A stretch of DNA of 64,000 nt, taken from the NCBI GenBank assembly GCA_023898665.1, contig CP060233.1, positions 356,368 to 420,367 on the forward strand, written 5' to 3'. Both the position numbers and the translations under genes were made by a program. Below, piece after piece: positions 8,154-56,686 of the stretch (its first letter is position 1; every line of letters begins with the position of its first letter). This stretch comes from Candidatus Nomurabacteria bacterium. Lineage in GTDB: Bacteria > Patescibacteriota > Saccharimonadia > Saccharimonadales > HK-STAS-PATE-42. The notes beneath the pieces are model-generated. The model was given only the letters and a program-made list of their open reading frames with translations. It had not been told where the DNA came from and made no database searches.

Positions 8154-8945
8154 ATGAAGGTAAAGTCGGCTCCGGGAGAATTCAAGCTTTTAAGATCTAA
8201 TATAGTTTTTATATTAGCTATTTCTTTCATGATTGCCATAAGTGGATTATTCATCTCCTTTGGAACTGATTATTTATATGATAACGGAAAACTTATATAC
8301 ACACTAACATTTATGTCTTTTGTAGGTTTGGCTGTTTTTGCTTTTTTAAGATTACAGCTCCGAGTTGCCGCTCTTGCAACAGAACTTAGAAGAACTGCCG
8401 AAGAAGAAGAGTTTGAAAGAAATAGAACCTTAACTCTAATTAATAGTATTAAAGATGCTGTGATATTTGTTGATGACAGTGGTCACGTGGTTCTATATAA
8501 TGCTGCGACTTTGGATCTTTTAAATACTAACGTTAGTATATCAAGACAAGCCGTAGAAACTGTATTTAAACCGGCTCAAGGGTCTGCAGTTGATTTTAGA
8601 CGTTTAATGGCGGAGCTAAAAGGATCTCAGACAATTAACTTTAAAAATGAAGTTGGAGACGGAAGATACATAGATTTGACAGTTTCTGTATCACGGGCTC
8701 GAAGTGGTTACGGAAAAATTGGAATGCGAGGCTTTGTTTTTGTAGCTAAGCTTAGTGGAGTTGAGAATACAGAATCCGAACAATATCATCTAGAAAGGCA
8801 TGCTCTAAGAAATTCTTGGGCTATAATTGAGGGTAGTATAGAGAATGCTCAACTTATGCTATCTAGGGATAACATTGAGGGCGCTAAAAAGGCCATTGAT
8901 ACCGCTATAAACAGCGCTGAACAAGTTAAGCAGAAAATACTTTAA
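8154..8945 (+). CDS. membrane protein with a PAS-like domain and no recognisable output domain
   Basis: Two TM helices. A PAS-like start follows (LINSIKDAVIFVDDSGHVVLYNAA). No HisKA/HATPase, GGDEF or similar domain comes after it. Confidence 0.55.
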   Translation: MKVKSAPGEFKLLRSNIVFILAISFMIAISGLFISFGTDYLYDNGKLIYTLTFMSFVGLAVFAFLRLQLRVAALATELRRTAEEEEFERNRTLTLINSIKDAVIFVDDSGHVVLYNAATLDLLNTNVSISRQAVETVFKPAQGSAVDFRRLMAELKGSQTINFKNEVGDGRYIDLTVSVSRARSGYGKIGMRGFVFVAKLSGVENTESEQYHLERHALRNSWAIIEGSIENAQLMLSRDNIEGAKKAIDTAINSAEQVKQKIL

Positions 8946-11422
8946 ACCAAATATATCTGATTATCTTTTATTTTTAGATTAATCTCCCGGGTATCCTTTA
9001 ATTGTTTAGAGTTTAGTAGAGTTAATTTATCAATTATCTCTTTAGCAATGGCGTTACTTATACCTCTGATACCCTCTTTAGGCTCATAATTACTCACAAA
9101 ATGGTTAATTAAAGAGTCATCGAAGTTTAGTTTTATGTTAGCCTTTCCAGTCTCGAGTCTGTTGCCAAGTTCATTTAATTTAAGATTGGTTATTATTTTT
9201 AGTGATTGTTTGTCAAAGTCTACAAAAGGTAAAATTGCATCAAATCTGTTAATTAGTTCGATCGGCATGACTTTTTCTAGCTCATATCTCATTGTGCTAG
9301 TTAAGTAATCTTCGTCTCCAATAGTTTTTGCTGACTTAAAACCAAGCTCTGCTGATCCTAGCATCTTTTTTGAACCAAGGTTACTGGTTAGCATAATTAC
9401 AGTATTTTTAAAGCTTACGTCCTCCCCTCTTGCAGAAGTTAGCTTTCCATCTTCAAGAATCTGGAGGAGCAAGCTCATAACTTGTGGATGGGCTTTTTCT
9501 ATCTCGTCAAATAGTATGAGACTGTAAGGTCGCCTTTTTACTTTAGAGAGTAATTCCGATTCTTCCTCATATCCTACAAAGCCTGCTGGAGATCCAATTA
9601 GCCGAGCGGATGTATGACTCTGACCAAATTCGCTCATGTCGAGTTTAATGAAACTTGATTCTTCGCTAAAAAGTTCTAGCGCTAGTTGTCTTGCAAGCTC
9701 TGTTTTACCAGTTCCACTTGGTCCCATTGCTATAAAGCTAGCTAGTGGTTTTTTATCTTCAGTTAAGCCAAGATTTGATCTACTGAGCGTGCTTATAACT
9801 CTATTTACTGCTAGGTCTTGACCAACAATCTTATACTTAATCGATTTTTTAATTCTTGCTAAATCAGAGTTATCTTTAAAGCTAGGTTTTATTCTATTTT
9901 CTGGAATATTTGTAATCACTGAGAGGGCTTTGATTATATGAGGTATTGTTAGCAATGGGTGTTGTTTCTTTGGGCTATTGTTTTTAATCTCTACTAATCT
10001 TTCTTCAAGATTCTGCCTGGTGTTTTTTAGTTCGTTGGCTTTTATGTAGTCTTCATTATCTAAAGCTACTTTTAAGTTTAATTTAACACTATTGAGCTCG
10101 TCTTCTAGAGCTTTGATATCTCTACCATGTGCCACTGGTCCTTTTAAGAGCCTAAGTTTAGCGGCAGCTTCGTCTAATAAATCCAAGGCTTTATCCGGTA
10201 AGAATCTCTCTGGGATATATCTACTACTTAAGTTTACGGCCTCTTTTATTGTCTCAGTTGGGATAGTAACATTATGGTGTTCTTGTAACTTATCTTTATT
10301 TGTTAGAAGCATTTGGTAGGTATCCTCTTCACTCGCCTCGGGTACTTCTATAGCTTGAAGTCTTCTAGCTAGAGCTCGGTCTTTTTTAATATGTTTTTGA
10401 TATTCTTCAGAAGTCGTTGCTCCAATTATTTGTAAGTCTCCTCGTGCTAATGCAGGCTTCAAGATATTACCAGCGTCCATACCTCCTTCTGCGTTTCCAG
10501 CACCACTTAGCATATGGATTTCATCAATAAAAAGAATTATATCGTGCCTTGCAGTGGATTCTTTTATGATTGCTTTTAGTCTTTCTTCAAAATCTCCTCT
10601 ATATCTGCTTCCAGCGATTGTGTCGGCAAGATCAATTGAGATTATCTTTTTATTTTTGAGCGAGTGAGGAAGATCTTTATCATCATTAACTATGAGTTGA
10701 GCCAGGCCTTCGACGATAGCTGTTTTACCAACTCCCGGCTCCCCTACAAGTATTGGGTTATTTTTTTGGCGTCTTCCGAGTACAACCATTATGCGCTCTA
10801 ATTGATCCCTTCTCCCATAGAGTGGGTCTAACTTCCCTTCCCCAGCTCTTTTATTAAGATCATCTCCAAAGAACTCGAGGGCTGTCTTTTGCTTTTTTGA
10901 GCGTTTTTGGGTTGATGTTTTTGGATTAGAATTATTTTGCTCTTGCTCAATTTCAGACTCTTTTTCTATCATTAAATAATCTTCAAGATGGTCAACAAGT
11001 TCTTCTTTAGAAATTCCTGTTAAAGAAAGAGTTTGTTTAAGCTGTTCCGAAGCTTGTATTAAGACTGAAAAGAGTAAGTGTTCTGTTCCACATGCCTGTT
11101 TATTAAATGCTTCTGAGAGTTCGATGCCTCCTTCTAGAATACCTTGGATCTTTGGATCAATAAAGCTTGTGATGATATGTGGAGTTTGCTCGATTTTAAC
11201 ATCTTTAAGTCCAAAAGCTCCTTCGATTCTTTTAAAATCTATACCATGATTTTTCAGGATCTTAACAGCAGTTGAATTTTGGTTACCTATTAAGCCCAGT
11301 AGTATATGTTTTTCTGTAATTGTCTGATCCCCTTGACTAATAGCAATCTGGAATGCTTTCGCTAAACTTGCTTTAGCGTTTTCTGTAAGTCTTGATGGAA
11401 TGTCTGTTTGTGAGAAAATCAT
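8942..11422 (-). CDS. clpC: ClpC-type AAA+ chaperone/unfoldase (two AAA modules)
   Basis: Clp N-terminal repeat. D1 has Walker A GEPGVGKT and Walker [10 protein letters not shown]2 has GPSGTGKT and [12 protein letters not shown] short middle domain is present. An LGF tripeptide (SAELGFKS) sits at the position of the ClpP-docking loop. Confidence 0.85.
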
Positions 11423-21440: not shown

Positions 21441-21743
21441 CTAGGTTTTGCCCAAAGACAGTAGCCAGAGCAAGTTAATAAATTTTTTTATAACAGCTTA
21501 AGAAGTACTACCGAGGGTCTGAAATTAAAAATGTTTGTATAAAAATTAGTAGCACAAGTTGTTTGACTAGTTCTGCTATAATAAAAATGAACAAACTTTT
21601 TAAATAAGGTTTTTCAGATTCAAAAGAGTCATTGGCATTTGCGAGAGCCAACGACTCTTTTTAATTTAACAAAATCCTGCGCACTACTCTTTTTAAAAGA
21701 AAAGGGTCGGCTAGTGTTTAAAAAAATAAAGGTATAAAGTTTT
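21441..21743 (+). promoter_or_regulatory. ~300-nt rplJ 5' leader (candidate L10/L12 autoregulatory leader)
   Basis: A long untranslated stretch lies between a consensus promoter and the rplJ ATG. It contains an intrinsic terminator about 80 nt before the start codon. Confidence 0.5.
21622..21667 (+). terminator. intrinsic terminator/attenuator inside the rplJ leader
   Basis: A 14-position stem AAAGAGTCATTGGC / GCCAACGACTCTTT with 13 pairs and one A-C mismatch. The loop is 10 nt and the stem is followed by TTTTTAATTT. Confidence 0.65.
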
Positions 21744-40735: not shown

Positions 40736-40807
40736 ATATTATTGTAGGGATATCTTATAATTAAATATAAATGTTCATTTTCCCTTTTTCTCTCTAAAGA
40801 AAAAAAT

Positions 40808-41422
40808 ATGACTAGGAAAACGAACGATACAAAAAGTGATGAAGCTGTGGCAGAGCTTTTTTTAAATGATTTAAATAATTTAGTATACTTTGAGGATTTA
40901 ATTTTAAGGTACGAGCCAAAATTGTTGAGATATGTAAGATCTTTAGGGGTTGAGCAGAACTTAGCTTACGACGTGGTTCAAGATTGTTTTATAAAAGCTT
41001 ACAGAAATATAAGAAGTTTCAATCCAAAAAAAGGCAAATGGAGCTCTTGGATTTATAGGATTGCTCATAATTGTGCGATGGATTCTTTTAAAAAGTCAAA
41101 AAAAGATCTAACAGTTGATGAGGATGAATGGTGGGATAGTATCTCAGTCCCTGAGACTATTACTGAGGAGTTGAACATTAAACTTAACAATGAGAACCTG
41201 ATGTATGGGTTGAGAAAGGTAGATCTTAAATATAGAGAGCCATTAACGTTGTATTATCTTGAAAATAAATCTTATAAAGAGATTGGAGATATTTTAAGAA
41301 TGCCGGTTCCTACGGTTAGTACGAGAATAAAGCGTGGGAAGGATAAGCTTAAAGAGGTAATTAATAATGATCTGATGGCAAAAGATAACCTTAAGGTTAA
41401 AAAGATGGAGGAGGTAATTTAG
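40808..41422 (+). CDS. ECF-type RNA polymerase sigma-70 family factor
   Basis: The region 2 block is DVVQDCFIKAYRNIRSF..WIYRIAHN. The region 4 HTH is SYKEIGDILRMPVPTVSTRIKRGKDKL. Confidence 0.9.
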   Translation: MTRKTNDTKSDEAVAELFLNDLNNLVYFEDLILRYEPKLLRYVRSLGVEQNLAYDVVQDCFIKAYRNIRSFNPKKGKWSSWIYRIAHNCAMDSFKKSKKDLTVDEDEWWDSISVPETITEELNIKLNNENLMYGLRKVDLKYREPLTLYYLENKSYKEIGDILRMPVPTVSTRIKRGKDKLKEVINNDLMAKDNLKVKKMEEVI

Positions 41423-41423
41423 T

Positions 41424-42128
41424 ATGCCAAAAGAAGTAAAAAAGAAGAATAATGAGCAAGAAATTAAAGAGCTCAAAGAGCGTTTAAGTGTTTTAGAAAA
41501 AATAGAGGCTGAAAAACTTAAACCTAAGAGCGAGATCAGAACAACTGGTAAGCAGTATTTTCCGCTAGTTCTTGGAGTCTTCTTTGCGCTATGTAGCGGA
41601 GTAGCTATTTACGGTGTTACTAGCTCTGTGAGATTCTACTCTGACTATGGTGATACATCTTCTCTATTAGTCTCGTTATTTATGTTATTCTCTTTGATTA
41701 TATTGGTTGGGGCAGCAACATGGGCGATTCATCGTAGTGAATGGGGCTATAGACTTAGATACACTGTAATATTTTCTATAGTTTTATTTAGTTCAATAGG
41801 AATTGGTGCAGTTTTAATGCAGGGTCCAGTTGAGAGATTCGTTGATAAATTAGGAATAAATAATAATTTAAGGGCAGAGGATAGACTTCTTAACGAGAGT
41901 ACAATTTACGGCAAAATTACTGATATAAAAAGAAATAATCTAAAAATATCTTTAATGGGAGGTGGCGAGATTAATGTTGGCATCGATGGGGACACCAAAG
42001 TCTTCCCTATGGGAGCTGAGATAAGAGAGAATCAAGTAGTTGGTGTTATTTTAAAATCTGATAGTAAGATAGCTAGATGGGTCAGGGTTCTTCCGGCTAA
42101 TCATCCGGCAGGTAGAAACATAAGATAA
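41424..42128 (+). CDS. membrane protein, putative cognate anti-sigma factor (by position only)
   Basis: The start is 1 nt after the sigma stop, implying translational coupling. It has a cytoplasmic coiled N-terminus, three TM helices and a beta-rich extracytoplasmic C-terminus. There is no ZAS (HxxxCxxC) motif. Confidence 0.4.
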   Translation: MPKEVKKKNNEQEIKELKERLSVLEKIEAEKLKPKSEIRTTGKQYFPLVLGVFFALCSGVAIYGVTSSVRFYSDYGDTSSLLVSLFMLFSLIILVGAATWAIHRSEWGYRLRYTVIFSIVLFSSIGIGAVLMQGPVERFVDKLGINNNLRAEDRLLNESTIYGKITDIKRNNLKISLMGGGEINVGIDGDTKVFPMGAEIRENQVVGVILKSDSKIARWVRVLPANHPAGRNIR

Positions 42129-42131
42129 GTT

Positions 42132-42158
42132 TGAAACAATTTTTAGATACTTCACGTA
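42132..42158 (+). promoter_or_regulatory. candidate ECF-dependent promoter (sigW-like TGAAAC-N17-CGTA)
   Basis: TGAAAC (42132-42137), 17 nt, then CGTA (42155-42158). It lies directly after the sigma/anti-sigma pair. No TATAAT-like box is found at sigma70 spacing. Confidence 0.45.
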
Positions 42159-42417
42159 GTAGTAAGTAGGAGGAATATCGAGAAAGCGAAGTCTAAAGAA
42201 AGTTTCTATAAAAACATCAAAAAGAACTATATTTTTATTAAATTTCTCTTTTTGTATTAACAATTTAACTTTCAACAATTTAGTCGTATTTTCTCATATT
42301 CTTTCTATTTAGTTTTCGAAATAATTTAGTTATTAATTTTAATAAGTCAAATAGGAGGATGAGCAAGCAAATTTAGCGGGCTTATATTAATAATGAAAAA
42401 ATAAGTAAAAAGCCAGT

Positions 42418-42927
42418 ATGGCGGTTATGGGCTTCGCAACTTTAGGGATTTTAGGTGTAGCTGGCTTGGCTGTAAGTGCTACTTCTCCATCTTCAGGTAG
42501 TGGAGATAATCTCGCAGCAAGACTCGCCACTAAGTTTGGTTTAAATAAAGAAGATGTATCTAAAGAAATAGATTCATTTAGATCAGAAGAGCGGGGTAAG
42601 CGAGAATCAGAAGTGCAGGCTAGAATAGAAGCTTCTTTACAGAAAAAGGTTGATGATGGCACTATAACGGCTGAGCAAAAAACTGCCATAGAAGTTAAGC
42701 TTAAGGAGGTCCATCAGGCTAGAGAGTCAGAACACCAAGCTAATATGAATTCTGGTAAAAAACTCTCTCGTGAAGAAATGAAGTTAAAAATGGATGCTAA
42801 TAAGAATGAGATGGATGCATGGCTTAAAGAACAAGGTATTAATATAGACCTTAAGGACGTACTCCCAGCTCATGATAAAGGCCATCACATTAGTAATGAA
42901 AATAAAGTAAAGGAGGATGATAACTAA
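42418..42927 (+). CDS. secreted charged helical protein
   Basis: Signal-like N-terminus MAVMGFATLGILGVAGLAVSA, followed by a Lys/Glu-rich helical sequence. The antisense ORF 42387..42689 is judged spurious. Confidence 0.6.
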   Translation: MAVMGFATLGILGVAGLAVSATSPSSGSGDNLAARLATKFGLNKEDVSKEIDSFRSEERGKRESEVQARIEASLQKKVDDGTITAEQKTAIEVKLKEVHQARESEHQANMNSGKKLSREEMKLKMDANKNEMDAWLKEQGINIDLKDVLPAHDKGHHISNENKVKEDDN

Positions 42928-42960
42928 AAATAAATTAAAAATAGCCCCTCTATATTTTTT

Positions 42961-42986
42961 GCCTAGAATTTTCTAGGGCCTTTTTA
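42961..42986 (+). terminator. intrinsic terminator after 42418..42927
   Basis: Stem GCCTAGA / TCTAG(G)GC (7 bp with one bulged G), followed by C and T5. Confidence 0.5.
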
Positions 42987-43026
42987 TGTTATATAAACAT
43001 TAGCTCTATCTGTTATAATTGTACGT

Positions 43027-43251
43027 ATGTTTTGGGTGGATCTCTTAGGATGGTGGTATGGTGCTGGACTTAAAGATTTGAGCATTAAGTTTAACGCTTT
43101 ATTTTCTTCTACATCAGATTTTTTTAGTATAAGTTTACTGGCTAAGAATCTATTTCAGCCTTACAGGCAAACTTTAACAGTAAGTAACTATAAAAGAACT
43201 TTCGGAGAAAAAATTACTGATGCTTTAGTTTCTAGGACTATAGGCTTTTAG
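43027..43251 (+). CDS. small hypothetical protein (possibly the 5' part of a split membrane-protein gene)
   Basis: Leaderless, with TGTTATAAT (43011-43019) 7 nt before the ATG. The ORF stops at TAG 43249-43251. A hydrophobic reading frame continues immediately in another frame. Confidence 0.55.
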   Translation: MFWVDLLGWWYGAGLKDLSIKFNALFSSTSDFFSISLLAKNLFQPYRQTLTVSNYKRTFGEKITDALVSRTIGF

Positions 43252-43394
43252 TGAGGTTTTTCTTGATCTTATTTGGTGGAGTAGTTTTAGCACTAGAAAT
43301 ATTTGCAATGGGTCTAACATATATCTTATGGCCATTTATACCGCTTTTACCAGTAATTTTAGTTGGCTTATCAATATTAAACTTTGGGTTTTAA
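43251..43394 (+). CDS. 47-aa hydrophobic ORF (GTG start overlapping the preceding stop; possibly the 3' part of the same gene)
   Basis: Sequence VRFFLILFGGVVLALEIFAMGLTYILWPFIPLLPVILVGLSILNFGF, which forms two TM-like helices. The frame is already open from 43236. Confidence 0.35.
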   Translation: MRFFLILFGGVVLALEIFAMGLTYILWPFIPLLPVILVGLSILNFGF

Positions 43395-43397
43395 GAT

Positions 43398-43716
43398 ATG
43401 GATTTTAACTTAAACTTAAATAATAAAAGAGCTAGAGAAGCTAGGAGGTCTAATCTCTTAAAAGAAGCTTGGATGAGAGCTCTATTTACTCTACTGGCTT
43501 TCTTTTTTGTTTTTGGCAGGTTACTTTTTAACTTCACTTTCTAGCAGTCTAGGTTTTTTATTTATAATCCCATCAATAATTTGGTTAATGATATGGCTTT
43601 ATTACACATTATGCCTAAAAGAGATAAAAGCTATTAAAGATCCTAAAGAAATCGCGGATTTATTAGAGCAAGATTTACTATCAAACTTACATGGTAATGA
43701 TCTCGGCTCTCTTTGA
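43398..43716 (+). pseudogene. two overlapping short membrane ORFs in successive +1 frames (43398..43544 and 43477/43507..43716) leading into the AAA+ ORF; either a frameshifted N-terminus of that gene or separate mini-proteins
   Basis: A hydrophobic helix is continuous across the first junction (ALFTLLAFFF | LFLAGYFLTSL) at a T-rich run (43500-43514). The second ORF overlaps the AAA+ ORF by 26 nt. Confidence 0.4.
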
Positions 43717-45838
43717 GTGCTTTAGAAAAAGTTTTGGCGGCAGATTCTTGTCTACAAGATTTTCTATAAGTCCAAAGACAATCGGAATAATGCTTGAGGC
43801 TAAAAATCCAGAGGATATTAGTATTTCTTCAGTTCTTGAAAAGGCATACAATATTTCTCAAACATCAAAATACAATTTATCAACAGGAGGATTAGTCAGA
43901 AGCATTTATATAGCTTTAGTTCTGCTTGATGAGGTGGATGTTAATACTCGAAGTCAGGTTTTGGGTAGTATTGGCTTAGACGATACAGATTTGCCTCATG
44001 CGATTGAATGGTTTGACCATTTTGAAAGTTTAATCCAAAAGAGTAAGAAAAAGAATAAAACTGGAGGGATAGGACGAGATTTAAGTTTTGGCTATACACC
44101 TCTGCTTTCTAGTTTTGCGAGCAATATAAGTGATAGCATTGGCCGAAGTGGAAATATTTATAGAGAACTTGAAGGTAATCGCCAAGCTCTTGAGCAAATG
44201 ATGCATGTTTTAAGTGCGGCTTCAAGATTAAATGCTGGGCTTGTCGGAAAAGTTGGAATAGGAAAGACTAATTTAGTATGGAATCTTGCTGAGAAATTAC
44301 TATATCCAGATTCATCTGTTCCACAGAACTTAAGATATAAACAAATCTTTAAGATTGAAGCTAGTACTCTAATAGCTAATACTAAGGGTTCTGGAAGTTT
44401 AGAGGACCTACTAATTAGAATATTTAATGAGGCTTTTAGAGCTAAAAATGTCATTTTATTTTTGGATGATGCAGAATTATTTTTAGAAAATGGTGCTGGA
44501 AAAATTGATTTAAGTGGAGTTTTGTCTCAAGTTCTAGAAGCTGGCGGAAATCAATTGATTTTAGCAATGAGCGATCAGGCATGGCTTAGATTGAGTAACT
44601 CTAATCCCTCGTTAGCTGGATTAATAAATAGAATTAATTTGTCCGAGGTTAGTTCAGAAGAAGCTATGCATGTCGCTCAAGATCAAGTTCTTATTTTAGA
44701 AGGAAAACTCAAGGTTAGATTCTTATATCAGACAATAAAACGGGCTGTAGATCTTGCAGAAAGGTTTATACAGGACGAAGCTAGTCCTGGTAAGGTCATT
44801 AAGCTTTTAGAGTATGGTACAAGTTATGCTGTAGATGGTTGGGTTATGCCGGAATCTATTGAGCAAGCTGTTGAAAAAAACTATGGAGTTAAGGTCCAGA
44901 CTGCTTCTAGTGTCGGTCAAGCTGAAACTGATAAGTTATTGAATCTTGAAGATTTAATTCATCAGAGAATGATCAATCAGTCTCGAGCCGTAAAAGTTGT
45001 CAGTGATGCGCTGAGACGTTCACGAGCAGGAGTGAGAAACACTAAAAAGCCGGTCGGGACTTTCTTGTTTATAGGTCCAACAGGCGTTGGTAAAACGGAG
45101 CTTGCCAAAAGTTTAGCTGCCACTTATTTTGGCGGGGAAGATGATTTGGTCAGGATTGATATGAACGAGTTTAGTCAGCCAAATGATGTATCTCGCTTAT
45201 TAGCTCCAGCTTCTGCGAATCCTAATAGTTTAACAGCCCAAATTTCTAAAAAACCATTTAGCGTTGTTTTACTGGATGAACTCGAAAAAGCTCACCCAAA
45301 TGTTTTGAACTTACTACTTCAAATGCTAGATGAGGGTATTCTACGTGATTCTGCAAATAAGCAAGTCAGCTTTAGGGAGGCTATTATTATCGCTACCAGT
45401 AACGCTGGAGCTGAGTATATTAACGACTTCATGCAAAAAAATGGTACTGATTTAGCCTCTATGAAGAGCCTAGAGGATAGTTTGTTAAAAGAGCTTATTA
45501 ATCAAGGTATATTTAAGCCAGAGTTTGTGAATAGGTTTGACGAAGTTGCTACATTTAGAAGTTTGAGCGAAGATGAGCTGGTAGAAGTTGTTAAACTTAT
45601 TATGATAAGTGTTAATAAGTCTTTAGCTAATCAAAAGCTGCAAGTCTCTCTTGAGGAAGGGGCTGCAGAACTTCTAGTCAAAGAAGGTAATGATCCCCTA
45701 CTTGGCGCAAGGCCAATGAGAAGAATTGTCCAAAGAACCGTTGAGAATATTGTCGCGGAAAGAATTTTGCGAGGTGAAGCGAGACCGGGAGTTGTCATAC
45801 AGTTAAGTGCCAATGATATTAAAGATCATTTAAGTTAA
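43691..45838 (+). CDS. ClpA/ClpB-family double-AAA+ ATPase lacking a canonical N-domain, long M-domain and ClpP loop
   Basis: D1 has Walker A GKVGIGKT and an atypical Walker B ILFLDDAE. D2 has GPTGVGKTELAKSLA, VVLLDELEKAHP and GARPMRRIV. No IGF/LGF tripeptide sits at the ClpP-docking position. Confidence 0.8.
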   Translation: MVMISALFECFRKSFGGRFLSTRFSISPKTIGIMLEAKNPEDISISSVLEKAYNISQTSKYNLSTGGLVRSIYIALVLLDEVDVNTRSQVLGSIGLDDTDLPHAIEWFDHFESLIQKSKKKNKTGGIGRDLSFGYTPLLSSFASNISDSIGRSGNIYRELEGNRQALEQMMHVLSAASRLNAGLVGKVGIGKTNLVWNLAEKLLYPDSSVPQNLRYKQIFKIEASTLIANTKGSGSLEDLLIRIFNEAFRAKNVILFLDDAELFLENGAGKIDLSGVLSQVLEAGGNQLILAMSDQAWLRLSNSNPSLAGLINRINLSEVSSEEAMHVAQDQVLILEGKLKVRFLYQTIKRAVDLAERFIQDEASPGKVIKLLEYGTSYAVDGWVMPESIEQAVEKNYGVKVQTASSVGQAETDKLLNLEDLIHQRMINQSRAVKVVSDALRRSRAGVRNTKKPVGTFLFIGPTGVGKTELAKSLAATYFGGEDDLVRIDMNEFSQPNDVSRLLAPASANPNSLTAQISKKPFSVVLLDELEKAHPNVLNLLLQMLDEGILRDSANKQVSFREAIIIATSNAGAEYINDFMQKNGTDLASMKSLEDSLLKELINQGIFKPEFVNRFDEVATFRSLSEDELVEVVKLIMISVNKSLANQKLQVSLEEGAAELLVKEGNDPLLGARPMRRIVQRTVENIVAERILRGEARPGVVIQLSANDIKDHLS

Positions 45839-45920
45839 ATAATTTCTTGAAATAAATATACAACCTCTGTTATACTTATATTCCTACTGTAAAATTTTAA
45901 GATTTTTTAATTTAAGAAAG

Positions 45921-46250
45921 ATGACTGGTATTAATACTGGAGAGGCAGGTTGTCCTCGACAAGAATTTGCTGACAAAGCCCTGGAACGAATAAGTCGTGT
46001 TGGTTCTGAATCTGACATAGCAGAAGTACGAGCATCATATTTATATTCTATGGAAGAATGTGGCAGGCTATGTATGGCAAGAGGTATATGTCTTGCGATA
46101 AATCAAGGCAGTGATGTTGAGGTTGAATTAATACGCGGACATGTAGATGTTTTTAAAACTGGTTCAACAATTCTGTCAGACCATATTGATTTGCATGATG
46201 GAGACACATACACTGCCCCACACCCAATAATAGCCGCAGTAAATGATTAA
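45921..46250 (+). CDS. small Cys4 protein, paralog 1
   Basis: 109 aa. C-x4-FADKALERI, then about 20 residues, then CGRLCMARGIC. It shares this pattern with the next ORF. Confidence 0.5.
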   Translation: MTGINTGEAGCPRQEFADKALERISRVGSESDIAEVRASYLYSMEECGRLCMARGICLAINQGSDVEVELIRGHVDVFKTGSTILSDHIDLHDGDTYTAPHPIIAAVND

Positions 46251-46258
46251 CAATAAAT

Positions 46259-46528
46259 ATGAATGATTTAATTAAAGAAGACCCTTATTTTGGGGAGTGT
46301 GGCGAAATAATAGACAGAGCGATTGAGGTCTTAGGTTCTAATGTTCCTAAATTACATCTTGAGCTAATTGGGGAATCTCTACACAACTTTTGTAAGCGAG
46401 ATTGTTCGTCGTGCCCCATTGATATGGCTAGAAGGAATATTAAAGTTACAATGGATAGGTCGGGATCTACGGCTTTAGCTGCAATTGATGCTCTTGATGC
46501 ATTAGCCTATAGATTCTCTAATTTATAA
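46259..46528 (+). CDS. small Cys4 protein, paralog 2
   Basis: 89 aa. C-x2-IIDRAIEVL, then about 20 residues, then CKRDCSSCPIDMAR. It starts 8 nt after paralog 1. Confidence 0.5.
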   Translation: MNDLIKEDPYFGECGEIIDRAIEVLGSNVPKLHLELIGESLHNFCKRDCSSCPIDMARRNIKVTMDRSGSTALAAIDALDALAYRFSNL

Positions 46529-46534
46529 ATAGAT

Positions 46535-49500
46535 TTAGCTATATTGACCAAGCATCATAATATCTTGCCAGACTTGTTTGATTAGTTTTTTAAATTCTTC
46601 GTATTCTGATTCTTTATAATTTAAGCTTACTGTTTTGACTTCGTTATCGCTGGCGTTTATGTAAACTAGCTCTGCTCCTATAGGCTTAATATTTTTAGGC
46701 AGACGTTCTGGGGCTAGGTCAAGTAGTAATTTGTATAGATAGAGTTGGTTCTTGTATTTTTCTTCAATTCTATCTTTAGATTTACCTGTTTTGTAGTCTC
46801 TGATTACTGCTGTTTGCTCATCCCTGTTGATAATTACTGCATCTAATTTTCCACTTAGTCTTACTTCATCGAAATTTACTTTTATATCTACTTCGCTCAA
46901 GGCTTCTGATTTTGTTAGATCGTTAAGTTTAGTAAGATGTCTATTTATGGTAAATTCAGCGAGTGAGTTTAGTTTATCTTTGGTTTCTTCATCAAGTGAG
47001 CACTTCTCTACTTCTTTTCTGTAAATCTTAATCAAATCTTCTAAACTTAAAAATTTATTGTTAGGTCTTGCTAGGTGCATTTTTTCGAAGACTTTGTGCA
47101 TAGCGGATCCATGTACTGCGCTTTCGCTCATAGCTTGAGGGAATCTGAGCAGGTGTCGTTGGATGAATTCTTCTCTTCCTCCGTATTCTTCGTCTAACCA
47201 AGTTGTTAAGTGTGTTGCACTTAATCTATATTTCTCTAAAATCGGCTGCAGAATTTCAGCTAGAATTTGTGTGGTCTCATCTTTAGGTTCTACATTAAAG
47301 AGTTTTTGTTGATAGCTTTCGGCGGACTCTTCAGCACTCATTAGATCTTCGGAGTAATCTATAAGTTTAACAAAACTCTCTGATTTGAGTGGCTCTAAGT
47401 ATCTGAGTGCTACTTTACTCTTGCCTTTTTCGTCAAATTTATAGAGTGTATGAACTAATCTATCCTTGGCTCTAGTTTGGGCCACGTAAAATAATCTTGT
47501 GCGGTCATCTGATGTATCCTTGTGGCTCGCAAAGTTGGCTGTAAGTTTAAGCGTGTCTGTACGGCTTCTGGCAGATTCGCTCCAGACATCTTCTTGGCAG
47601 TGGATTAGATAGACTTGATCGAACTCTAAGCCTTTTGAGCCGTAAGCTGTAAGTAATTTAACACCGCTAGGCTTTATATGTAGTCCGCGTCTGGCAAGAC
47701 GTATTCCACCATGTTCTTGGCAGAGCTCAACGTATTTTATAAGATCATTAAGCTTAGATTTGGACTGATCTGAGTAGTAACTTCTTAAATGATCTCGTAA
47801 AGAGGAAAGACTACTTAAAAAGTTGGCGTAGTGAGCAGGCTTGGTTTCTAACTTTTCTTTAGAAAAGTAGAAATCTTTAAATGGAGATTTAATATTAATG
47901 TTTTGGTTATCTTCAGATTCATCTGGTTCGTTTGCTCCAATAAGTTTGTCGAGCATTTGCTCTAGACTTAAGTTTAGACTTAAAGTTCCCCAATTAATCA
48001 ACAGGTTGTAGATTTGCTTACCTTTTTCTCCAAGAGCCCCGTCGTTGAGGTAGTCTAGCCAATGTTTTCTATCTTTACTTTTAGCTGCGTAAGATGCTAA
48101 GCGATAAATTGAGCCGTTTTCTAATTGCCAGTAAGGGCTGCTTAAGACATGGGCTAATAAGCTGTTAGAATGGGTTAACTCCCCTACTCCGATATTTAAA
48201 ACTAATTTACTTAAATCTACTAATTCTAATATTATTTCGTCTTCTAAAATGTTACTCGAAGTCTCGTAGAAAACTGAAACGTTATGAGCAATAAGTTCTC
48301 TAGCTAGTTCTTGCAGGTATTTGTGTTTCGGAGCTAGAACAGCTATGTCTTCTGCTCTTGTTCCTGATTTGATTTGCTTCTTGATATCTTTACAAATCCA
48401 GCTAAGCTCACTATTTGAGTCTGTAAAAGTTGCGATCGAAACTTCTTTATTCTCTGAATCTGAATTACTACTAAGTTCTTTTACATAAGTGCCTGCCGGT
48501 CTTTCTTCAATTTGTTGTGATGTTTTTAGACTTGCACTAAGGATATCTGAGTTAGAGCGGTAGTTTTCATCCAAGGTTATAATCTCTGTTTCAGGGTAGA
48601 GACTTAGAAAACTTTGGAAGTTAGAAACGGATGCTCCTTGAAAGGCATAAATAGCTTGGTCATCATCACCAACTACCATAATGTTTGGTCTGTTAAAATT
48701 GGTCGGGTTGTCTCCTAATAACTTAACAATTTCAAGTTGTGAGAAGCTTGTATCTTGGAACTCATCTACCAAGATGTGTTGCCACTGCTCTTGGATATTA
48801 AGCTTAAGGTCTTCGTTACTTTTTATAGTATTAATTAAGTTTAGGACCATATCATCAAACTCGATCTTCTCAAATTTTTGGAGAGCCTGTTCATATTGCT
48901 CATAGATATATGCGACTTCCTCTAGATTCTGATTGTATTTAGCATCCTTAAAGCGCCATTTGTTATTTAAATCTTTTTCGAAATAAAAGTTTTTAAAGGC
49001 AGTTATTGGAGTTGTTTTGCTAGTTTCAAAACTTTCTGTTAGAGCAGAAGTTAGTTCTTTTAGGATGATAGACTTTAAACTTGGGACTAGTTCTTCATTC
49101 TCATGGTCTAATTGTTTTGTTTGTAAGTAATCTACAAGAGATTTTATGAGCTTATTTGTTTCTTCTTTCCCTCTTGGTATCTCAGGTGGGAATAAGTTTA
49201 GTAAATCTTTTAAGTCTTCGAGATCTGCTTTGTTGTTATTGGCAATGTTTTTTGCATGCTGAGGCTTTAAGCCGGCTTTTTTAAGCTCTAATATTTTTGA
49301 GGTTAGCTCACTAATTCTGTTTTCTCGAGCAAAACTTCTGTGAGCAAGCTTAAAATTAAGTGGTAAATTACTTAAAATATCTTCTAGGATTTGATAACTT
49401 GTAAGATCGTCAATCGGTTGAAAGCCTCGAGTATCTAAAAAGTAATCAGGAAAGTGACGCATAACCTCTAAAGCAAAACTATGAAAGGTATGCACTGAGA

Positions 49501-53617: not shown

Positions 53618-56600
53618 TTAGCCGATTTGCTTCATTATTTTGTCTGTTTCTACTAGTACTTTTATGATTCTTTGGTAGTGATCTATGTCGTCATTATTTA
53701 ACTTTCTGCCCTTTCGGTCTTTTAGCCATTTTTGAGCTGGTTGGTAGCCTCCAATGTAGAAGTTCCAAGCTACCTCTGGGACGTTTCCGAAGTATTGCTC
53801 GCTATTAATATATACTTGGCCGTCTTCATATTTAACTTGCTCTACTTCGTCTGTGCCGGGTTCTGGATAAGTTGTGATGTAATCTTCTAAAGATGGATCT
53901 GTCATTAGGTGCAAAGCTCTAAGTTTCGTTCCAAAATCTTTAAACTTAACAAACCCGGCGTCGTCTTTTGGTATTGGTACTCTGGGAAAGTCTATTTTTA
54001 GGAATTCTTTATATTTTTCTCGATAACTTGGCGAATGCAGAACGCCATAAATGTAATCTAAAACATCTTCCGGCTGATATTCCGATTTTAAGTTTTTATT
54101 AAGCTTAGCAAGTTCACCTAAGTTGAAGTTTGGAGTTTTTGTTCCGTCATTATGGTAGAGGTAGAGCGGAATAAGATAATTATTGTCTAGGGCTGTTATC
54201 GTGGTTGGCTCCATGGTCATTAGTTCACTTACAAATATGAAGCCCCAGGCTCTGTCGCTCCTAGATCTTCTTATGGTCACAAGGCCTAGGTTGGTTTTTT
54301 TTGCCATATGTTTCATAAGGTTGAAGCGATCTCTTTTTAGTGCCATGCTTTCGTAAAGTATCCACCTTTCATCAAATGGTCTAAACTTGATTTTGAGATA
54401 ATTATCTTCTTTATTTTGGGTTGACTTGAATCTGTCTAGTCGCCAACCACTTGTGTCTGTTAGGTTATATTTATGCCTGATATAGTTTTCGTCAGAGTTG
54501 GCCAATACTTCAGAAACCCTATTCATTAGTGTATTCTTATCTATGTCAATTATAAGATGATCTTTGCCAGTATGTATTCCGCTTGAATTGAGGACAAAGA
54601 GTTGATTAAGTGATATGTAATTATCGTAATCTTTTTGTAGTATAAAATCTTTTGGCACGAAGAAGTGTGCTGGAGCTGGGGCTTCTAGCTTACTAAACTT
54701 AATGTCTTTATTTAATAGGGAACTAAACTTAATTTTACGTTTTCCGTAGAGTTCGGAGTGGTATATTTCGCCAAGTTGATTATTTTTCTTTTTGCCAAAT
54801 TTTATCATAAATACAATTGAAACACCCTGCATAATATCGAAGACGTTTTCATCTTTAGTTCCATCGGGAGAAGTTTCTTTCTTTTTACTATTTCCGTGCA
54901 GATCTACTACAAGAATTTTGTCAAAAGTTTGGAGGAGGTGTTTTCTCATTTGGCGGTGCGTTATTCCGTCTATGTAGCTGTTGTTGGTAATCATTGCTAC
55001 AATTCCCTCGCCATTTTTAGCAATTTGATCTTCTGCAAAGCGAATAAACTTAATATAGTCATCATCTAAATTTATTTTTCGCTCGTTTAGATCTTTCTTA
55101 TAATCTTTAATTAAGTTTAGGATGTGATCACCTTTATTATTGCTACTGATTGAATATGGTGGGTTGCCGATTATGACCATGATTGGTTTTTCGTGTTTGA
55201 TCTCTGCGGCTTTAGCACTTTCTTGGGTCACGGCTTCTGCTAGGCCGTAGCTGAATAGATCTGGTTGGCGTGGGATGCCTTCTTCAAGTGTGTTAGTTAG
55301 ATAAACCCCGAGACGGTCTGTATAGTCCATCAGTCCTGTTTCTTGTAGCGTCATGCCAAGTTTGAGGTGGGCAATGGTGTATGGAGCCATCATTAGCTCA
55401 AAACCATGTAGGCGCGGGAGTAAATCACGCTCAGCGTAGCTTGGCCAACAGCCTTCTTGCCCCTCAAAGCCTTCATAAATGAATTTGATAGTTTCGTTTA
55501 AGAAAGTAGCAGTTCCGACTGCTGGGTCCAAGATTTGTACACGGTGTATTTGGTTCTTAAATCTTTTACCAGATGCGTCCTTTGTTATATGATCAATTTT
55601 GCTTGTGTCGGCTAAACCTTTACCAAGCTTAAACTCCTCTTTAAGAATTCTATCCACTTGGTTGATCATAAACTTAACAACTGGAATTGGTGTATAGTAG
55701 GCGCCCATTCGTTTGCGTTCTAGTGGGTCATACTCTTTTAGAAAGTCTTCATAAAAGTGGATTATTGGGTCTTTTTCGTCTCCTTGACCATCTCCAAATT
55801 CAATAAGTTTAAGGTGTTTTTTGATTAATTCTTTAACGTTACTAACTTGAAAAACTTCGCAAAGCTCATCGACAATGTAGCCTAGTCTGTCATCAAACTC
55901 AGAGCCAGCAATGTGATCGAAAAATTTACGTAAGAAAGGGTTTGATTTAGGAACTAGGTCGCGTGCCTCCTGGCGAGTAAAGTTATCTGGAGTTCTGTCT
56001 CCATAACGAGCTACGAATAAGCCGTAGACGAGTGTTTGGGCGTACATATCTGCAAATTTTTCCTTACTAAGATCATGCACTAACAATTCCTTCATCATGC
56101 TATACATCTTTTCGAGCTCTTGGTTGCGCTCATGCTCGTCATCTAGATACAGCGATACATTGTCGCGAATACGACGTGCCTTACCTCCCATGATTTCGGC
56201 AAGACGGCGTCCTGATTTAATTTGCTCTGGAGGAAGCTCTAAAAATTCTTTTAGCTCGCGTACGAGTTCTTCGGAGTTCTCGGGGTTTAAGCTTAAGTGG
56301 CCATCTTTAAGTTTACCGAGACTGATGGTTTTGTATTTTTCACCATTCTTAAAGAAGCGGAACTCAAGGTAGTCGGTCAAGAACAAATTCGCGTAACCAT
56401 GGTAGCGCTCCATTTGTTCGGTCTTTTCAGTTTTATCTAGGATGTCAGGTTTGATGTCTTTTGCTTCGGCATACCCTTTTATAATTTTAGAGTTGGATCT
56501 TTTTAAAAACACAAAGTCAGGCATGCCGTGCTGGGAGCGCTTAGGGTCGTTGACTGCGCTAGTGTCGTCAAAGCTCTCCATGAGTTCTTTAAGCGCAGGA

Positions 56601-56686
56601 CGATAAGCATGCTCGCCTGCTTGCCCTGAGCTGAAGTAACGTTCAACCTCGTTTAAGTATTTGGATATTAGTCCTTGGGGGTTCAT
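53618..56686 (-). CDS. single-polypeptide type IIG/IIL-like restriction-modification enzyme (N-terminal PD-ExK-like nuclease motif, gamma-class N6-adenine methyltransferase, C-terminal specificity region)
   Basis: The candidate nuclease motif is MPDFVF-x12-GYAEAKD (D..ExK). SAM motif I is VQILDPAVGTATFL. Motif IV is IIGNPPYS. The C-terminal blocks YIYGVLHSPSYREKY..IDFPRVP and YIGGYQPAQKWLKDRKGR are typical of type ISP/IIG specificity domains. The gene is leaderless (minus-strand TATAAT 56701-56696). Confidence 0.8.
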   Translation of the reverse strand: MNPQGLISKYLNEVERYFSSGQAGEHAYRPALKELMESFDDTSAVNDPKRSQHGMPDFVFLKRSNSKIIKGYAEAKDIKPDILDKTEKTEQMERYHGYANLFLTDYLEFRFFKNGEKYKTISLGKLKDGHLSLNPENSEELVRELKEFLELPPEQIKSGRRLAEIMGGKARRIRDNVSLYLDDEHERNQELEKMYSMMKELLVHDLSKEKFADMYAQTLVYGLFVARYGDRTPDNFTRQEARDLVPKSNPFLRKFFDHIAGSEFDDRLGYIVDELCEVFQVSNVKELIKKHLKLIEFGDGQGDEKDPIIHFYEDFLKEYDPLERKRMGAYYTPIPVVKFMINQVDRILKEEFKLGKGLADTSKIDHITKDASGKRFKNQIHRVQILDPAVGTATFLNETIKFIYEGFEGQEGCWPSYAERDLLPRLHGFELMMAPYTIAHLKLGMTLQETGLMDYTDRLGVYLTNTLEEGIPRQPDLFSYGLAEAVTQESAKAAEIKHEKPIMVIIGNPPYSISSNNKGDHILNLIKDYKKDLNERKINLDDDYIKFIRFAEDQIAKNGEGIVAMITNNSYIDGITHRQMRKHLLQTFDKILVVDLHGNSKKKETSPDGTKDENVFDIMQGVSIVFMIKFGKKKNNQLGEIYHSELYGKRKIKFSSLLNKDIKFSKLEAPAPAHFFVPKDFILQKDYDNYISLNQLFVLNSSGIHTGKDHLIIDIDKNTLMNRVSEVLANSDENYIRHKYNLTDTSGWRLDRFKSTQNKEDNYLKIKFRPFDERWILYESMALKRDRFNLMKHMAKKTNLGLVTIRRSRSDRAWGFIFVSELMTMEPTTITALDNNYLIPLYLYHNDGTKTPNFNLGELAKLNKNLKSEYQPEDVLDYIYGVLHSPSYREKYKEFLKIDFPRVPIPKDDAGFVKFKDFGTKLRALHLMTDPSLEDYITTYPEPGTDEVEQVKYEDGQVYINSEQYFGNVPEVAWNFYIGGYQPAQKWLKDRKGRKLNNDDIDHYQRIIKVLVETDKIMKQIG

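Follow-up and report, generated by a model that had tools for sequence, protein, structure and literature searches.

The window analysed here, a stretch of 64 kb, is AT-rich (36.5% GC) and otherwise tightly packed with long open reading frames (ORFs). Its sole chain of short same-strand ORFs lies at 43027-45838. Direct inspection of the sequence placed the five ORFs, all on the plus strand, at the coordinates and in the frames given by a first-pass annotation of this DNA: ORF1 at 43027-43251 in frame 1; ORF2 at 43251-43394 in frame 3, its GTG overlapping the ORF1 TAG in a TAGTG arrangement; ORF3 at 43398-43544, again in frame 3; ORF4 at 43507-43716 in frame 1; and an AAA+ ORF of 715 amino acids (aa) at 43691-45838 in frame 2, with AAA_2 and ClpB_D2-small domains. 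The four small pieces matched no family. ORF2 and ORF3 share a frame and are spaced as TAA, 3 nt, ATG.

Orthologous loci carry two genes here. A genome-collection scan with the 715-aa protein as query returned 366 relatives, nearly all labelled Saccharibacteria (TM7), from which 80 loci were kept; 79 of these were informative, one (L065) being left out as cut by a contig end. At every informative locus a first gene (gene A) occupies one frame and is followed by a second (gene B) that forms a single ORF of 800-871 aa, and neither gene is split in any of the 79 Saccharibacteria loci. The three closest loci (L001-L003; 73-76% protein identity), checked ORF by ORF, have exactly two genes in the region. 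The first encodes a membrane protein (122-131 aa) that runs through the sequences of ORF1 and ORF2 in turn, the second a protein of 809-822 aa that runs through those of ORF3, ORF4 and the AAA+ ORF. At about 75% identity at the protein level, the closest non-conspecific relatives would be saturated at synonymous sites for dN/dS. When the relatives' proteins were searched against the window by tblastn, the matches retraced its frame hops, gene A in frame 1 (43027-43248) and then frame 3 (43248-43391), gene B in frame 3 (43398-43514), frame 1 (43489-43713) and frame 2 (43700-45832), so the ORF chain is not a product of chance. A word-indexed protein search with the conceptually fused N-terminus gave three matches (best 56% identity) and did not reach the same strain; two of them, P0001 and P0002, cover 100% of this N-terminus as single polypeptides that span both gene-B junctions.

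Because the relatives carry two intact genes, the junction between ORF2 and ORF3 reads as an ordinary gene boundary with no lesion, and the other junctions as lesions specific to the window. The five pieces do not make up a single protein. The suggestion of the first-pass annotation that they yield a membrane-tethered Clp-like ATPase holds for ORF3, ORF4 and the AAA+ ORF, which together correspond to gene B; ORF1 and ORF2 belong to a separate conserved gene. The hydrophobic helices that the annotation saw continuing across the first junction and from ORF3 into ORF4 do so, according to both tblastn and the repaired translation described below. The comparison with orthologous loci that it had proposed found single uninterrupted ORFs throughout and separate short ORFs at 0 of 79.

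Much closer sequences are available in public data: the window is matched at 99.7-100% identity by Logan contigs from SRR12358675 (52.6 kb), SRR12358676 (51 kb and 16.7 kb) and SRR28385528. In all three the genes called at this locus are uninterrupted, at 178, 122 and 814 aa. Relative to these contigs the window is missing 9 nt in eight deletion events, all within 42402-43730, and there are zero substitutions across 42096-47149. Once the 9 nt are put back, the window is identical to one of the contigs (L094) over 3455 nt. Four contigs (L085, L086, L094 and L097) are without all eight deletions, and L081-L084, four short contigs from other samples, are without those that they cover; these four also have the longer runs at sites 1-4. 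L084, a JGI contig found by a metagenome pattern scan, is intact through the first and second junctions (sites 5-6). Exact look-ups of the fragment proteins (715, 713, 74, 69 and 48 aa) in a collection of 153 billion genes came back empty, and the same kind of look-up found neighbouring intact proteins of the window in many public assemblies and samples.

Seven of the eight deletions fall in homopolymers and the remaining one takes 2 nt from a T/TC run; every one of them is a contraction. Sites 1 and 2 lie at the start of a plus-strand gene upstream of the chain (42393-42927), where A7 has become A6 (42396-42401) and A6 has become A5 (42407-42411), with seven independent contigs against the window: L081-L084, L085, L094 and L097 read ATGAAAAAAATAAGTAAAAAAGCC, versus ATGAAAAAATAAGTAAAAAGCC in the window. 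In the other assemblies this gene encodes 178 aa, with a signal or transmembrane helix and a charged coiled region. Since both 1-nt deletions come after the true ATG at 42393, the window keeps open only a 169-aa ORF (42418-42927). Site 3 (42937-42941; A6 to A5) is intergenic. Site 4 (42962-42963; C3 to C2) takes one base from the stem of an intrinsic-terminator-like hairpin on the plus strand downstream of the 178-aa gene (42961-42986). In L094 this stem pairs perfectly over 8 bp (-13.6 kcal/mol); the minimum-free-energy fold of the window no longer contains it and adopts a different structure (-8.7 kcal/mol). The disturbance had been placed at 43027-43716; that interval is affected, and the damage reaches upstream as well, with four more deletions in 42402-42963.

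The other four deletions interrupt genes A and B. Site 5 (43246-43249; FS1), a contraction of T5 to T4, lies in gene A, and its repair gives ...SRTIGF-L-VRFFLILFGG..., so that the gene reads ...VSRTIGFLVRFFLILFGG... At site 6 (43499-43502; FS2) gene B has lost 2 nt from GGCTTT(CT/TT)CTTTTTTG, with GGCTTTCTCTTTTTTG (L094 and L085) or GGCTTTTTCTTTTTTG (L097 and L084) becoming GGCTTTCTTTTTTG in the window; the repaired reading is ...LLAFSFLFLAGY... This second junction had been assigned to a T-rich run (43500-43514); the deletion itself sits at 43499-43502, just before the T6 run. The third junction comprises two 1-nt deletions in gene B, 14 nt apart: site 7 (43712-43714; FS3a; T4 to T3) and site 8 (43726-43730; FS3b; A6 to A5). 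The true reading is ...LHGNDLGSL-LSALE-KSFGGRF..., in which five codons (LSALE) are in window frame 3 and frame-2 coding resumes at about 43731. The earlier description of this junction, as HGND/ISALFECF without a homopolymer, was therefore misplaced, both a T run and an A run being affected. A single T5 to T3 contraction (...GSLFECFRK) was also considered for this junction and ruled out, as the near-identical contigs read ...GSLLSALEKSFGG by way of two deletions. With two 1-nt deletions at the junction, the apparent MVMISALFECFRK start of the 715-aa ORF is out-of-frame junk, and by comparison with the near-identical contigs the first 13 codons of this ORF are out of frame. Repaired gene B reads ...LLAFSFLFLAGYF... 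and ...LHGNDLGSLLSALEKSFGGRFLSTRF..., the latter matching LHGTDLNSILNGLEKSFGGRFLATRF in L003. The junction-spanning peptides of the repaired reading are LSRTIGFLVRFF, LLAFSFLFLAG and GSLLSALEKSFGG.

A background rate for these deletions came from comparing the full length of the window (1-64000) with those Logan contigs. This yielded ten indel events, only two of them outside the patch at 42402-43730, plus a handful of SNPs. At least eight of ten events in 1325 of 64000 nt corresponds to a binomial P of 1.5e-12, and eight deletions out of eight has P = 0.004 under an unbiased direction of change. Runs of at least 5 nt are more frequent in the patch (13.4 versus 8.4 per kb), and this richness is nowhere near enough to account for the clustering. 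An assembly that is error-ridden in general is ruled out by the two indels and handful of SNPs in the other 62.7 kb. The two outside indels, at 21698 and 21704 (6 nt apart), are each an insertion of 1 nt in the window relative to L100 and L101; they are intergenic, upstream of the gene for ribosomal protein L10. Elsewhere, at 40782-40783, the window has CC versus TT in three other assemblies, an adjacent double substitution in a T-rich intergenic stretch just upstream of a sigma-70-family gene (40808-41422).

Two features of the locus were seen in other samples. Seven short-read contigs from different samples break at 42342/42343/42401, the left edge of the patch: L095, L096 and L098 end at 42401, L099 ends at 42342, and L081, L082 and L084 begin at 42343, with an Illumina adapter (CGTGTGCTCTTCCGATCT) fused to L082 at the break. 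The shared break point suggests a branch in the assembly graph or a fragment end at this edge. L084 itself (Ga0116151_10142315) comes from a sister strain, nearly identical to that of the window across some 1000 nt, and carries a mosaic tract of 280 nt that diverges by about 23% (65 substitutions, no indels). This tract corresponds to window positions ~43224-43501 (7805-8084 of L094) and spans the transmembrane half of gene A and, in gene B, the N-terminal tail plus the first helix; both genes are intact, and the tract looks like a recombination import. Together, the shared breaks and the mosaic tract indicate a locus that varies among strains and is hard to assemble or polish.

The combination of eight contractions, no substitutions, exact repair and a failure to recur elsewhere is the signature of a local consensus error and not of evolution, and we consider it very probable that the ORF chain is a local consensus or assembly error in the window. 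Sequencing or assembly indels were one of four alternatives listed in the first-pass annotation, and it is this one that the evidence supports. According to this explanation, the patch at 42402-43730 would be a 1.3-kb stretch of poor consensus that understates the length of eight short base runs by one or two bases each. The organism's true content here would be a 178-aa exported or membrane protein followed by gene A (122 aa) and gene B (814 aa), and four of the eight missing-base events, by hitting genes A and B, would have produced the five ORFs. The cause was presumably technical: homopolymer under-calling in a poorly covered or unpolished stretch, possibly brought about by the strain-variability of the locus. 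The deletions strike coding, intergenic and terminator sequence alike. That the other assemblies are wrong instead of the window is ruled out, given that several independent assemblies come from different samples; their ORFs are collinear with those of the 79 relatives and their terminator stem is perfect, which puts the fault on the window side.

Indels in homopolymers have been described as a systematic error of nanopore assemblies, where they shift reading frames and raise the number of pseudogenes (PMC8011154; PMC12007338). As in the consensus assemblies, long-read or otherwise poorly supported, in which such errors break genes into false pseudogenes (Homopolish, PMC8011154; Kastor, PMC12007338), the indels of the window run in one direction, affect short homopolymers, frameshift conserved genes and are corrected exactly by closely related genomes. 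Unlike in those cases, the errors here are limited to a single 1.3-kb patch within 64 kb of clean sequence. This confinement is a caveat: an error-prone technology should scatter its errors, whereas the remaining 62.7 kb are clean. One must therefore suppose something local, for example a dip in coverage, polishing that failed or a filled gap. Also counting against an artefact, the 2145-nt AAA+ part is still open, which would fit a real and very recent lesion as well.

Could the lesions be biological? A recent pseudogenisation allele, in which slipped-strand deletions cost the strain gene A as well as gene B's membrane anchor, with translation from an internal start perhaps still yielding a soluble ATPase of 700 aa, is an improbable explanation to which we leave a small chance. 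Arguing for it, the lesions lie in short runs prone to mutation, the long downstream AAA+ ORF remains open and the locus is variable in the population, as the L084 mosaic tract and the assembly breaks at 42343/42401 attest. Counter to this, eight indels without a substitution in 1.3 kb, against two indels in 62.7 kb, make an unnatural spectrum, all the more so with every one of the eight a contraction. Relaxed selection would offer no explanation for the half of the deletions (four of eight) that lie outside genes A and B, in a gene start, an intergenic stretch and a terminator stem. The genes are unbroken in at least three assemblies whose remaining sequence is 99.9-100% identical, and the same lesions, looked for in independent data from the lineage as the mark of a genuine pseudogene, were found in none of the near-identical contigs. 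The putative new start also fits poorly, with no Shine-Dalgarno-like motif ahead of ATG 43691 in the window sequence and 13 out-of-frame codons behind it. That the deletions are real, the outcome of a localised slipped-strand burst that inactivated gene A and left either a soluble ATPase or a gene rescued by slippage, strikes us as very unlikely.

Programmed frameshifting and separate mini-proteins, both raised in the first-pass annotation, are effectively excluded, given uninterrupted genes in 79 of 79 relatives and in at least three near-identical assemblies. For recoding, in which ribosomal frameshifting or transcriptional slippage at T/A runs would yield full-length proteins, the chance is close to nil. 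Its appeal is that the junctions lie in or beside T/A runs with hydrophobic helices running on across them. The genes prfB (+1) and dnaX (-1) likewise have adjacent ORFs in different frames that together encode one protein. A programmed site should be conserved, however, and both the relatives and the near-identical assemblies use one frame. Recoding would also take four separate shifts, differing in sign and spread over two genes, with only 14 nt between two of them. The contexts read from the window, GGC TTT TAG, GCT TTC TTT TTT G, CTT TGA G and GAA AAA G, have runs of 3-6 nt; among them there is no X XXY YYZ heptamer, no prfB-like CUU UGA context with an upstream Shine-Dalgarno sequence and no A/T run of at least 8-9 nt. 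Unlike prfB and dnaX, then, the window combines a shift that is unconserved in relatives and four required shifts with the lack of a slippery or stimulatory motif at these sites. Five independent mini-protein genes have as little claim on our belief. Each piece does have a possible start codon, and ORF1 and ORF2 overlap at TAGTG, but separate ORFs occur in no relative among the 79 loci, the fragment proteins are missing from the gene collection, and the starts of ORF2, ORF4 and the 715-aa ORF fall within conserved continuous protein sequence.

Taken at face value, the patch would burden the annotation of a reduced Saccharibacteria genome with three false pseudogenes and several spurious mini-ORFs and, left uncorrected, would encourage an account of recoding for which the data give no support. 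Correcting it as a local consensus error gives back a conserved gene pair that is found throughout Saccharibacteria and is worth proper annotation. Gene A (43027-43394, plus strand), split into ORF1 and ORF2 in the window, encodes a small membrane protein that is 122 aa long after repair; its N-terminal half is soluble, its C-terminal part has two to three hydrophobic helices, and it matched no Pfam family. A TATAAT hexamer at 43014-43019 lies 7 nt upstream of its ATG (43027) with no Shine-Dalgarno-like sequence between the two, and the mRNA of gene A may be leaderless.

Gene B (43398-45838, plus strand) is spread in the window over ORF3 (frame 3), ORF4 (frame 1), five codons in frame 3 and the 715-aa ORF (frame 2). 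The repaired product is a membrane-anchored class-I Clp/Hsp100-like double AAA+ ATPase of 814 aa. Two N-terminal transmembrane helices (43479-43593; about aa 28-46 and 48-66 of the repaired protein), a hydropathy estimate from the Kyte-Doolittle scale with a 19-residue window and not the output of a trained predictor, are preceded by a basic cytoplasmic tail and followed by a region of about 150 aa that has no Clp_N match. By the positive-inside rule the ATPase part would be cytoplasmic. The first AAA+ module (D1, 44246-44476) has the Walker A motif GKVGIGKT (44246-44269) and the Walker B motif ILFLDDAE (44453-44476), in which Asp replaces the usual catalytic Glu (DD, not DE), as it does in L001-L003, P0001 and P0002. 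The second (D2, 45074-45295) is canonical, with Walker A GPTGVGKT (45074-45097) and Walker B VVLLDELEKAH (45263-45295). Pfam matches of the 715-aa ORF are AAA_2 (1e-43), ClpB_D2-small (5.5e-19), AAA (two stretches) and AAA_lid_9.

With two Walker A/B modules and a D2-small domain, gene B belongs among the class I Clp/Hsp100 AAA+ proteins, and its best solved match is Bacillus subtilis ClpC/MecB (3j3t; E 1e-103), with ClpB and ClpA also matching. In common with ClpC, ClpA and ClpB it has two AAA+ modules, an AAA_2 D2 and a ClpB_D2-small C-terminus. It differs from them at the N-terminus, where a basic tail and two transmembrane helices stand in place of Clp_N, which matched neither the 715-aa ORF nor the first 240 aa of the repaired protein. 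Scores fell far below the NCBIfam equivalog cut-offs for ClpB (367 versus 1232 bits) and ClpA (347 versus 993). There is no insert of M-domain length: ClpA aligns in one stretch, and ClpB and ClpC in two overlapping stretches, a pattern consistent with the absence of a middle domain. A ClpP-docking loop of the form [IVL]-G-[FL] is absent from D2, the segment KYVGFNV of B. subtilis ClpC aligning to NDFMQKN, so that FMQKN stands opposite the VGF docking tripeptide. Lacking a counterpart to VGF, gene B is doubtfully coupled to ClpP. From homology, we suggest that it may work close to the membrane as an unfoldase, probably independent of ClpP, with gene A as its partner. A literature search for a transmembrane ClpC in Saccharibacteria found no description, and the intact pair of genes A and B appears to be undescribed; it could be a lineage-specific machine for membrane-protein extraction or quality control.

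The window also encodes a canonical ClpC-like paralogue on the minus strand (8942-11422; 826 aa), with Clp_N, AAA, AAA_lid_9, AAA_2 and D2-small, that is only about 25% identical to gene B. Another minus-strand ORF, of 1022 aa (53618-56686), has a counterpart in the near-identical contigs that matches N6_Mtase, Eco57I and Type_ISP_C, and its product looks like a single-polypeptide restriction-modification enzyme of Type ISP/IIG.
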